Shown here: positions 52,036-54,893 of the stretch, piece after piece
Numbering within the stretch: the stretch's first letter is position 1
Layout: each line of letters begins with the position of its first letter
Sequence record: PP400786
Length of the DNA: 64,000 nucleotides
DNA from: Escherichia phage FL12
Direction: 5' to 3' (one strand)
Made by a program: the position numbers and the translations under genes
Notes under the pieces: model-generated
Seen by the model: only the letters and a program-made list of their open reading frames with translations
What the model was told of the DNA's origin: nothing
Databases searched by the model: none

Positions 52036-52617
52036 CTAACCGAGCTTTTTGGTTAATTCATTCCAATGTTTTCTACACAAAGAAACATAAATTTCATCAC
52101 CAATACAGATTTGATTACCTTCTTTAACTGGTGTTCCATCTTCCATTAATCGAGCTGTCATAATCGCTTTTTTACCGCAATGACAAACTGCTTTTAGTTC
52201 AATAAGTTTATCTGCAATCGCTAAAAGTTCTTTAGAACCTTCAAATAATTTTCCAGCGAAATCAGTCCTTAATCCATAAGCCATAACAGGAACATTATAT
52301 GTATCAACAATTCGGCTCAATTGATGCACCTGTTCAGTTTTTAAAAACTGAGCTTCATCTACAAATACGCAATGAATATCTTTTTGTGCTTCAGCCCATT
52401 TATAGAACTCGAAAATATCCATATCATCTGTAATAATATTCGCTTCCTGCTTAATTCCAATGCGAGAAACGACTTCACAGACAGAATCGCGAGTATCAAT
52501 AGCAGGCTTAAGAACTAATACACTCATTCCACGTTCTTTATAATTATGCGCAGCAGTCAAAAGAGAAGCAGATTTTCCAGCATTCATTGCTGCATAAGTA
52601 AAAATTAAACTCGCCAT
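52036..52617 (-). CDS. tk: thymidine kinase
   Basis: 193 aa as T4 Tk; P-loop NAGKSAS; C-terminal zinc ribbon CHCGK...CRKH. Confidence 0.85.
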   Translation of the reverse strand: MASLIFTYAAMNAGKSASLLTAAHNYKERGMSVLVLKPAIDTRDSVCEVVSRIGIKQEANIITDDMDIFEFYKWAEAQKDIHCVFVDEAQFLKTEQVHQLSRIVDTYNVPVMAYGLRTDFAGKLFEGSKELLAIADKLIELKAVCHCGKKAIMTARLMEDGTPVKEGNQICIGDEIYVSLCRKHWNELTKKLG

Positions 52618-52626
52618 ATCACCTTC

Positions 52627-52818
52627 TTAAAGCGTATTCACATAAGCTATTAATTCATTTTCTTTCTTATCAAACCGATCAGCAAATTCTTCCTGCTGTT
52701 CAGGAGATAGCGGGCCGTATTCATCATAAAAGGTGTTTGCTTCTGTATGCTCATCTAGAAGTTCATTGATAAGCTCAAACAATTTATCTTTTTGTTCTTT
52801 ACTCAGACTCATAACCAT
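52627..52818 (-). CDS. small acidic protein
   Basis: ORF track 63 aa. Confidence 0.45.
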   Translation of the reverse strand: MVMSLSKEQKDKLFELINELLDEHTEANTFYDEYGPLSPEQQEEFADRFDKKENELIAYVNTL

Positions 52819-53036
52819 GTCACCTTTAAGCAGTATTCTTCTACATGCTGTTTACGACCTTTCTTATCAATAAAGGTATATTCAACGAATGTTCCAATGT
52901 AGTCTTTATCTACATCATGTGGACTATTAATTGGACATTTAGTACGGCAAATGCGTTCCCATTGACGAATAATTACTGCCTTATTCTTTGGGTCATACGG
53001 ATGTGGATAATGTATATTCATAATAACGGTTCCCAA
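52809..53036 (-). CDS. small hypothetical protein
   Basis: ORF track 75 aa. Confidence 0.45.
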   Translation of the reverse strand: MGTVIMNIHYPHPYDPKNKAVIIRQWERICRTKCPINSPHDVDKDYIGTFVEYTFIDKKGRKQHVEEYCLKVTWL

Positions 53037-53485
53037 TCAACAATCACAATTTCTAATTTAGAGGAATATGTATCTAAAATCCCCTCAATAATATCCCAGT
53101 TCCCTCTACCTATGCCTGCACCAATCCTAGGCACATAGATTGTAGGTTTAATCAGTTTATTTTCACCAAACTCATTTAATTCTAACATACAATTCATTAA
53201 AGCGGAATACTCAAAATTTGGCCCTGGTTGAAATTGAGTATAAAGGTTGAAGCAATACGCTTTATGAGTCCTAAAGTATTTTTCATAGACTGAGTAAGAA
53301 CCGAGTTTAGTTACATCACCCCATTCAGTCTGTAATTTATCAGCTTCCAAAATTTTAGGGAAAGCTTTGGTTAATTGACCCGCTACGCCTGAACCCATAG
53401 TATGAAAACAATTGCATCCATGCGCAATATTTTTACCTTCAGCGAAAAGGGCGACAATATCGCCCTTGATATATTTTACAATCAT
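53018..53485 (-). CDS. macro-domain protein (TARG1/OARD1/DarG-like ADP-ribose hydrolase fold)
   Basis: 155 aa; GDIV-x7-NIAHGCNC-x4-MGSGVAGQ and C-terminal VPRIGAGIGRG; ATGA-coupled to upstream gene; RBS GAGGA. Confidence 0.55.
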   Translation of the reverse strand: MIVKYIKGDIVALFAEGKNIAHGCNCFHTMGSGVAGQLTKAFPKILEADKLQTEWGDVTKLGSYSVYEKYFRTHKAYCFNLYTQFQPGPNFEYSALMNCMLELNEFGENKLIKPTIYVPRIGAGIGRGNWDIIEGILDTYSSKLEIVIVDWEPLL

Positions 53486-53829
53486 CTAGTACTCAATCCT
53501 CGATTATAAGAATCTACCAAACGGTCAACCATTGAATGACAAGCGGCTTTATCTTTCTCCTCCGCAACTGAGCATTCTAAGGTATTCCACTTTTTAGCAT
53601 ATCGTTTTAATAATGTATCGTTTTTGTATCTGCTTGATTTATCTCTTTCTCCGTCTTTATATGCATATATTAATTTCTGTGCAAATTCAGCTTGGCATGC
53701 TTTATTTTTCCCACAATAATCTGCCGCAGTGCGGTTTACATATTCTCTAATTTCAGTATATGATGTATCTGCTGACGCAGAAGCAGAAAATGAAATTAAT
53801 CCTATACATAAAACCAAAATTTTAGTCAT
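53482..53829 (-). CDS. secreted/periplasmic Cys-containing protein
   Basis: 115 aa; signal peptide MTKILVLCIGLISFSASASA. Confidence 0.45.
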   Translation of the reverse strand: MTKILVLCIGLISFSASASADTSYTEIREYVNRTAADYCGKNKACQAEFAQKLIYAYKDGERDKSSRYKNDTLLKRYAKKWNTLECSVAEEKDKAACHSMVDRLVDSYNRGLSTR

Positions 53830-54367
53830 TTACTATTTCCAAAAGTTTATTATTTTTAAGGTAATTAGCCTTTTCTAGGACTTCAGAAGCATATTTAGAA
53901 CCAGCTTTAACATTCCATCCCGAATTATAAGAGGATATTGCTTTTCTTATATCACCCTTATGTATATTTAACCAATAAGAAAGTTCAATGTACGCCCAGG
54001 AAGCTGAATTGGATCGTTTATTCAACATTCTTTTTATTTCAGCATCGGTCATATTATAACCAAGTTCCTTAACTCTTGCTCGCATAGTAGGCAAATAATT
54101 TTGGAACATTCCGTAGGCGTGATGCTTTGGTTTAGATTTTAAATTAACTCCGCCAGAGCTTTCTTGCCATAAAATGGCTGCCATTATATGACCTAATCCA
54201 CTCTTGTGGATATTTTTGTGTGTTTTATATTTTCCATCCTTAGAAAATTGTTCCCCGAATTGATATGCATAACGCATGTTATCGAGTTGGACATTACTGA
54301 AAGTATGCTCGGAGCTATGTGCCATCATTGAAATGGCCAATAGACCAGCGAGTAGTGCTTTTCTCAT
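53822..54367 (-). CDS. secreted lytic transglycosylase-like (SLT/lysozyme-like) protein
   Basis: 181 aa; signal peptide; ILWQESSGG and AYGMFQ motifs. Confidence 0.5.
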   Translation of the reverse strand: MRKALLAGLLAISMMAHSSEHTFSNVQLDNMRYAYQFGEQFSKDGKYKTHKNIHKSGLGHIMAAILWQESSGGVNLKSKPKHHAYGMFQNYLPTMRARVKELGYNMTDAEIKRMLNKRSNSASWAYIELSYWLNIHKGDIRKAISSYNSGWNVKAGSKYASEVLEKANYLKNNKLLEIVND

Positions 54368-54374
54368 GCTTACC

Positions 54375-54836
54375 TCATTGAGTTTTAATTACTGCTTTAG
54401 AAGCCTTTCCTGGTAAACGACGACTGTTAATAATTGCCATCCTGCATTGAAGTGACGGGTTTTTGAACTTCTCATTAGGCTTACAAACTGTAAATCCAAG
54501 CCAAAGATTTCCATCTGTGATTTCTAAACGTCCAGGACGATATTCAACCCCATCAATAAAATCCTCATCAATGTCAGGACGCGGAGGCATACTTAGGAAT
54601 TCATTAACTTCTAAAACATGGTCTTTTATTTTATGGAATAATTCAAAAACATATGTCTCATCAATCTCCCGTTGAATTGCACGATCAAGAAGATGTTGAG
54701 AATATTTTAGATGAAACGATGAGACCCCTGCTGCTTTTGATGCCTCACGAATCTCATTGTTAATTTGACGAAACTCCGACTCAAAGTGACGACGAAGCTT
54801 ATTTCGACGGATAAAAACTTCTGTATTGATAGTCAT
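54375..54836 (-). CDS. regB: endoribonuclease RegB
   Basis: 153 aa as T4 RegB; MTINTEVFIRRNKLRRHFESEF. Confidence 0.75.
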   Translation of the reverse strand: MTINTEVFIRRNKLRRHFESEFRQINNEIREASKAAGVSSFHLKYSQHLLDRAIQREIDETYVFELFHKIKDHVLEVNEFLSMPPRPDIDEDFIDGVEYRPGRLEITDGNLWLGFTVCKPNEKFKNPSLQCRMAIINSRRLPGKASKAVIKTQ

Positions 54837-54864
54837 GTTATTCTCCTCTTAACTGATAGAAAAA

Positions 54865-54893
54865 TTATACCACAGTCAAGAGGAAAAGTAAAC
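54865..54893 (-). promoter_or_regulatory. T4-type early promoter upstream of regB
   Basis: minus strand GTTTACttttcctcttgactgtgGTATAAT. Confidence 0.5.

Follow-up and report, generated by a model that had tools for sequence, protein, structure and literature searches.

Tk.4/AdfM of a T4-like phage is a glutamine-type macrodomain and a probable eraser of DarT2-made ADP-ribose on DNA

The closest described counterpart of the gene analyzed here is tk.4 of phage T4. A match between tk.4 orthologs and the A1pp (macro) domain was already recorded in 2006 (PMC1524935). In 2025, loss of both AdfA and AdfN was reported to leave T4 still able to resist DarTG2, an indication that another factor was at work (PMC11825919). 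When a T4 transposon library was subsequently placed on a DarTG2 host in the HIDEN-SEQ study, tk.4 was the single significant hit, the hit was reported to be confined to that host, and T4 with a clean knockout of the gene lost plating on it, after which the gene was named adfM (bioRxiv 10.1101/2025.11.20.689424). The same authors described the protein as structurally similar to M. tuberculosis DarG and wrote that an enzyme activity taking ADP-ribose off DNA "seems likely"; the phenotype in this preprint was recorded for a single DarTG2 system, with growth in M9 glucose at 30 C (bioRxiv 10.1101/2025.11.20.689424). Our literature searches for further biochemistry on T4 Tk.4/AdfM gave the HIDEN-SEQ preprint alone, and no in vitro hydrolase assay of T4 Tk.4 or of a close homolog was found in the literature searched.

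A second phage protein that is also named AdfM, gp104 of PhiKZ, is the subject of a Cell Reports paper (Morgan et al., Cell Rep 2026, PMC13309987). In vitro, it stripped DNA of the ADP-ribose added by DarT2, and the N23A substitution lowered this activity. Among cellular macrodomains, wild-type SCO6735 of Streptomyces coelicolor outpaces both DarG and TARG1 in clearing DNA of the thymidine ADP-ribose that DarT makes, and in vivo it rescues cells from the toxicity of DarT (PMC9411070). Its Q85A variant is inactive and its N27S variant nearly so, and Asn27 holds the catalytic glutamine in place (PMC9411070). TARG1, too, cleaves thymidine-linked ADP-ribose on DNA (PMC8501950, PMC9411070).

Here, we examined a 64,000-nucleotide stretch of Escherichia phage FL12 (record PP400786), referred to below as the window, which carries an ortholog of T4 tk.4, now adfM (anti-DarT factor, macrodomain), in a sister Tequatrovirus. 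The surrounding region is 98 to 99% identical to many Tequatrovirus (T4-like) genomes, the product matches T4 Tk.4 over its full 155-residue length with 98.7% identity (153/155 residues), and the synteny is shared with T4 and phage ESh31, in which tk.4 likewise sits between vs and tk.3. The anti-DarTG2 role of the near-identical T4 gene is already known from the published genetics, and the window contributes another ortholog. The need for adfM on DarTG2 hosts was established by genetics in T4 and may extend to the phage of the window. The two proteins differ only by V118M and R127K, with Val118 and Arg127 in the window and Met118 and Lys127 in T4. Both changes are conservative and fall within 53102..53134 on the minus strand, position 118 next to the second phosphate-binding loop, PRIGAGIG(R/K)G, and position 127 in it. 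Position 127 is glycine in most family members of a 119-sequence homolog alignment.

The preferred reading, to which we assign a probability of roughly 0.78, is that this Tk.4 ortholog is an orphan antitoxin-like eraser of DarT2-made thymidine ADP-ribose that uses SCO6735-like chemistry. The original prediction, made from the DNA letters, had proposed that a phage-encoded macrodomain could reverse host ADP-ribosylation-based immunity, and the published T4 tk.4 screen and knockout on DarTG2 support that proposal.

The locus was largely as first described. The open reading frame at 53018-53485 was confirmed on the minus strand with an ATG start and 155 codons for amino acids, and the motifs quoted for it were all found in the product, with GDIV at residue 8, NIAHGCNC at 19, MGSGVAGQ at 30, and VPRIGAGIGRG at 118; only the gap between the second and third motifs had been miscounted, being three residues (FHT) rather than four. 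The proposed placement in the regB-tk region also held, with annotation and domain searches giving the order regB-vs.1-vs-tk.4-tk.3-tk as in T4. The ATGA overlap claimed with the upstream gene is present, and reading the letters directly revealed a second ATGA, in which the tk.4 stop overlaps the tk.3 start, and an 8-nucleotide overlap, ATGACTAA, between vs.1 and vs. The genes thus overlap on both sides of tk.4 and therefore form a tightly packed run that is probably translationally coupled. Because tk.4 was the sole hit in the T4 screen, the coupled downstream genes are not behind the phenotype. Of the sigma-70-like sites in the region, the one with the best match lies about 28 nucleotides upstream of the regB start and has 10 of 12 consensus matches, in a regional consensus scan in which such sites were no commoner than in shuffled sequence (21 versus 22.7). 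By its consensus match, this site is a candidate that would fit an early promoter for regB through tk. All coordinates are collected in Table 1.

Table 1. Features of the tk.4/adfM locus, listed from the candidate promoter down to tk, with the stretches of DUF7438 paralogs last. Positions are those of the window unless another genome is named.
Feature	Position	Strand	Evidence or remarks
Candidate promoter, sigma-70-like, TTTACT-17-TATAAT, extended -10 TG	54864..54892	-	Consensus scan, 10/12 matches
regB endoribonuclease, first gene of the packed run	54375..54836	-	Pfam REGB_T4 E=5.9e-69
vs.1, 181 aa, SLT lytic-transglycosylase domain	53822..54367	-	Pfam SLT 25.1 bits, cut-off 21.3; PHROG 600
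vs.1/vs overlap, 8 nt	53822..53829	-	Read directly
vs, valyl-tRNA synthetase modifier, 115 aa, upstream of tk.4	53482..53829	-	PHROG 1256 E=1.7e-39; T4 annotation; TGA overlaps tk.4 ATG
vs/tk.4 overlap, ATGA	53482..53485	-	Read directly
tk.4/adfM coding sequence, 155 aa, single macrodomain	53018..53485	-	ATG start; TGA stop 53018..53020
Hairpin within tk.4, codons 7-13	53447..53467	-	mRNA sense is the minus strand
Codons H22-G-C-N25-C	53408..53422	-	Translation; His22 = SCO6735 His24, Asn25 = SCO6735 Asn27
Codons M30-GSGVAGQ-37, first glycine-rich ADP-ribose/phosphate loop (GxG)	53375..53398	-	Translation; aligns with TARG1 MGAGIA, DarG MGKGVA
Codons Y82-T83-Q84	53234..53242	-	hhalign and hmmsearch; Gln84 = TARG1 Lys84, DarG Lys80, SCO6735 Gln85
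Codons P119-RIGAGIGRG-128, second glycine-rich phosphate loop	53102..53131	-	Translation; aligns with TARG1 PRIGCGLDRL
tk.4/tk.3 overlap, ATGA	53018..53021	-	Read directly
tk.3, 70 aa, DUF7202, downstream of tk.4	52809..53021	-	Pfam DUF7202 E=2e-38; T4 annotation 70 aa; ATG overlaps tk.4 stop
Small DUF7438 gene between tk.3 and tk	52627..52818	-	PHROG-653/DUF7438
tk, thymidine kinase, distal end of the run	52036..52617	-	Pfam TK E=6e-61
Small PHROG-653/DUF7438 paralog stretch, window (the DUF7438 gene listed above)	52627..52818	-	
Small PHROG-653/DUF7438 paralog stretch, L002	3674..4044		
Small PHROG-653/DUF7438 paralog stretch, L001	2128..2694		

Several further observations were made on the neighboring genes. 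The upstream gene had been called a secreted-protein gene; by PHROG 1256 and the T4 annotation it is T4 vs, but its product does begin like a classical Sec signal peptide, with MTKILVLCIGLISFSASASA preceding DTSY and an Ala-x-Ala site. The N-terminus of Vs.1, the SLT-domain protein, is likewise signal-like (MRKALLAGLLAISMMAHS). A periplasmic location of the vs product is difficult to reconcile with its binding to the valyl-tRNA synthetase, a cytoplasmic enzyme. The HIDEN-SEQ preprint found that vs is required for plaques in minimal medium and left the role of the modification unexplained (bioRxiv 10.1101/2025.11.20.689424). For tk.3, the DUF7202 match covers residues 6-75 of a longer, TTG-started open reading frame. 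Between tk.3 and tk, the number of small PHROG-653/DUF7438 paralogs varies among close relatives, with one in the window, two in T4, and three in Shigella phage ESh31, which accounts for a length difference of about 370 bp in the megablast matches. Within tk.4 itself, a perfect GC-rich hairpin of 8 to 9 bp, AAGGGCGAUAUUGUCGCCCUU, lies about 19 nucleotides past the ATG; a terminator scan had flagged it on the opposite strand. We did not retain this hairpin as a functional element, because the 96-nucleotide region around it has only a modest folding advantage over shuffled sequence (z=-1.8).

The family to which Tk.4 belongs is widespread. A tblastn search identified homologs in 2,747 of 50,697 phage records, from phages of Escherichia, Klebsiella, Salmonella, Pseudomonas, Vibrio, Acinetobacter, and Bacillus, and a search of the protein database returned 196 homologs. 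The family is also common in a viral structure library, where one member, from Acinetobacter phage 133, is annotated tk.4. The window protein matches PHROG 335 with E=5e-65, and its assignment to the family is well outside what chance would give.

Tk.4 is a stand-alone macrodomain. Residues 22-132 match Pfam Macro PF01661 with 26.5 bits against a curated gathering cut-off of 22, and an AlphaFold2 model built from a 51-sequence alignment of homologs (pLDDT 94.1, pTM 0.90) has the three-layer alpha/beta macro fold with a central mixed sheet and carries both glycine-rich loops for the ADP-ribose diphosphate, G31-S-G33 and G122-A-G124. A Foldseek search of the PDB with this model placed the macrodomains of TARG1, BT1257, Poa1p, and DarG in the top ranks (E 9e-10 to 2e-7; TM-scores 0.7-0.8), human TARG1/OARD1 being the best match with E=8.9e-10. 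A tabulated comparison gives values of 18.4 for BT1257, 18.0 for Poa1p, 17.3 for M. tuberculosis DarG, 16.9 for Thermosipho DarTG, and 16.7 for TARG1, whereas no MacroD-type, coronavirus, alphavirus, or PARP macrodomain exceeds 13.4. Searching the solved structures by sequence gave the same relatives. The nearest structural and sequence neighbors are all ALC1/TARG1-like, and Tk.4 therefore falls in the ALC1/TARG1-like class, which comprises TARG1, DarG, SCO6735, and BT1257. The structure comparison that the original prediction had proposed against TARG1 and DarG thus returned a confident macro fold with both proteins among the top matches.

The description of the product as a TARG1/OARD1-type domain was correct as to class and as to the shared motif skeleton, GDxx...AH...MGxG...PRIGxG, but it does not extend to the catalytic pair of TARG1. 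The positions of TARG1 Lys84 and Asp125 are taken by Gln84 and Gly126 in Tk.4, and Asn25 stands where TARG1 has a serine. The equivalents of the catalytic lysine and aspartate, which had been put forward as a check on the prediction, are absent from the whole family, with neither the TARG1 Lys/Asp pair nor the DarG lysine in any of 119 aligned homologs, which reach down to about 35% identity. In this alignment, Gln84 and Tyr82 are invariant (119/119), as are G33 and A35 of the first loop and P119, I121, G122, and G124 of the second. Asn25 is present in 118 and His22 in 113 of the 119 sequences, and position 126 is alanine or glycine in every one. The residue equivalences were taken from HMM and profile-profile alignments that agreed with one another and that also pair Gly122 and Gly124 with Gly126 and Gly128 of SCO6735. 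A plain MAFFT alignment with the PDB relatives set NMIGQ of BT1257 and SCO6735 three columns off NLYTQ of Tk.4 and was not used for this purpose. As aligned, the active site is of the SCO6735 type, with a glutamine and without the catalytic lysine of TARG1 and DarG. SCO6735 also lacks both TARG1 residues and yet is active, so the missing pair is no argument against hydrolase activity of Tk.4. The candidate targets for mutation that follow from this assignment, and which we add here, are Q84 and N25 rather than a lysine.

The similarity to SCO6735 of Streptomyces coelicolor and to BT1257 of Bacteroides thetaiotaomicron covers the glutamine at the site of the catalytic lysine, the conserved asparagine, and a histidine three residues before that asparagine. 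Tk.4 differs from both in being only 20-29% identical to them and in being encoded by a phage, theirs being cellular proteins. It also differs in the mobile loop, which is about 5 (5-6) residues longer in SCO6735 and BT1257, whereas Tk.4 has a short loop as in TARG1 and DarG; the alignments require a gap of 5-6 residues in Tk.4 right after Gln84-Phe-x-Pro. Neither of the lysines through which SCO6735 contacts DNA or phosphate has a counterpart, Lys34 lying opposite Ser32 of Tk.4, a position that is alanine or serine across the Tk.4 family, and Lys89 lying inside the 5-residue insertion that Tk.4 lacks. Within the ALC1/TARG1-like class, Tk.4 is thus of the Gln type and has a short loop.

Despite the reported structural similarity, Tk.4 was not filed as a DarG. 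The DarG macrodomain (T. aquaticus 5M31/5M3E, M. tuberculosis 5M3I) carries Lys80 in FPTK, which in the alignment with the T. aquaticus protein stands opposite Gln84 in LYTQ of Tk.4. The 155-residue protein matches only positions 2-146 of the 338-position NCBIfam DarG model NF048014, scoring 30.3 bits against a cut-off of 250, and the PADLOC DarG model gives it 36 bits; both models match far under the level of true DarG-type proteins. There is also no adjacent darT, the neighbors being vs, vs.1, and regB upstream and tk.3, the DUF7438 gene, and tk downstream. PhiKZ gp104 resembles Tk.4 as a phage-encoded orphan macrodomain that counters DarTG2, which for Tk.4 was shown in T4, and in its conserved asparagine. 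However, gp104 is DarG-type, with E=9e-25 to M. tuberculosis DarG, the FPTK lysine present, and 133 bits to the PADLOC DarG model, and Tk.4 and gp104 are only 20% identical (BLASTP E=0.004). Judged from their sequences, the two proteins that two groups have named AdfM belong to different macrodomain subfamilies of one class, and the T4-type and PhiKZ proteins are probably independent acquisitions.

On this basis, we propose the following mechanism for the eraser. Tk.4 would be expressed from the regB-vs.1-vs-tk.4-tk.3-tk run and would bind ADP-ribosyl-thymidine on single-stranded phage DNA, with the loops G31-S-G33 and G122-A-G124 clamping the diphosphate. Gln84, positioned by Asn25, would orient the distal ribose, and water would cleave the N-glycosidic bond. 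The unmodified DNA restored in this way would allow phage replication to continue and would neutralize the abortive defense of DarTG2. Both the hydrolase activity and the part of Gln84 in catalysis are inferred from SCO6735, and the chemistry is probably SCO6735-like rather than TARG1- or DarG-like. Because Tk.4 has neither the extended mobile loop nor the two DNA-contacting lysines, the mechanism of SCO6735 is transferred to it by analogy. With these differences, the Tk.4 clade might represent a third mechanism among thymidine-ADP-ribose erasers, with a Gln active site, a short loop, and no DNA-contacting lysines, a view that we regard as unlikely. If it were true, the substrates may exceed the products of DarT2 and include ADP-ribosylated RNA bases, the products of other nucleic-acid ADP-ribosyltransferase toxins, or soluble ADP-ribose signals, and the clade might pair catalysis with direct inhibition of DarT2.

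Protection of the phage by Tk.4 could also be stoichiometric, the protein binding or blocking DarT2 or shielding its DNA target with catalysis unneeded. In vitro, the inactive variants SCO6735 Q85A, DarG K80A, and TARG1 K84A each inhibit DarT through interaction, SCO6735 being the strongest of the three inhibitors (PMC9411070), and the anti-DarT factors AdfA and AdfB of T-even and Vibrio phages act by toxin binding (PMC11825919). Nevertheless, the ADP-ribose-binding and catalytic residues of Tk.4 are invariant down to 35% identity, which argues for selection on catalysis and not on a toxin-binding surface co-evolving with varying DarT2 proteins, and Tk.4 has no counterpart of the C-terminal DarT-binding domain of DarG. 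As a replacement for erasure by hydrolysis, this explanation is improbable, but stoichiometric inhibition of DarT2 could contribute beside catalysis.

GenBank labels tk.4-type records either "macro domain protein" or "phosphatase," and the latter name, also used in PHROG, suggests an enzyme that takes the phosphate off ADP-ribose-1''-phosphate or processes other small soluble derivatives of ADP-ribose, for example by-products of RNA repair or immune-signaling or toxic ADP-ribose metabolites, and that erases no mark on DNA. The likeness to yeast Poa1p (6LFQ), which is such a phosphatase of small molecules and has no known role against DNA ADP-ribosylation, speaks for this possibility together with the inherited labels. 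However, we did not take the label as functional evidence, since it goes back to A1pp, the former name of the domain, and none of the phage proteins was assayed for it. Poa1p is also longer (180 residues in the deposited chains), has extra insertions, and carries a serine at the position of Gln84, whereas Tk.4 shares its glutamine with the DNA-active SCO6735. Direct functional data link tk.4 only to DarTG2, a DNA-modifying system, and a phosphatase role leaves the DarTG2 phenotype unaccounted for. We therefore consider it quite improbable that Tk.4 is solely an enzyme of small molecules, although phosphatase activity and DNA de-ADP-ribosylation are compatible and not mutually exclusive.

Macrodomains of the ALC1/TARG1-like class cleave ester linkages to acidic residues and linkages to thymidine, and arginine-linked ADP-ribose, which is removed by ARH/DraG-type enzymes, is not known to be a substrate for them. 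It is therefore highly improbable that Tk.4 removes or adjusts the ADP-ribosylation or RNAylation that the phage itself applies to proteins through Alt, ModA, and ModB, as the original prediction had offered for ModA/ModB: that T4-type phages encode three ADP-ribosyltransferases is circumstantial, and SCO6735 and TARG1 do act on protein substrates too, but the targets of Alt and ModA are arginines (MazF Arg84 and RNA polymerase alpha Arg265, respectively; PMC8120803), and the screen hit in tk.4 was reported to be specific to DarTG2.

Our analysis makes a modest addition to the published genetics, namely the invariant SCO6735-type glutamine in Tk.4 and the subfamily split between the two AdfM proteins. 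Read as an eraser of thymidine ADP-ribose, Tk.4/AdfM would take its place among the anti-DarTG layers of T-even phages, in which AdfA acts against the toxin, the NADAR enzyme AdfN against the guanine modification made by DarT1, and Tk.4/AdfM most likely against the thymidine modification made by DarT2. Phages would then carry orphan antitoxin-like erasers that undo the DNA ADP-ribosylation of DarTG.
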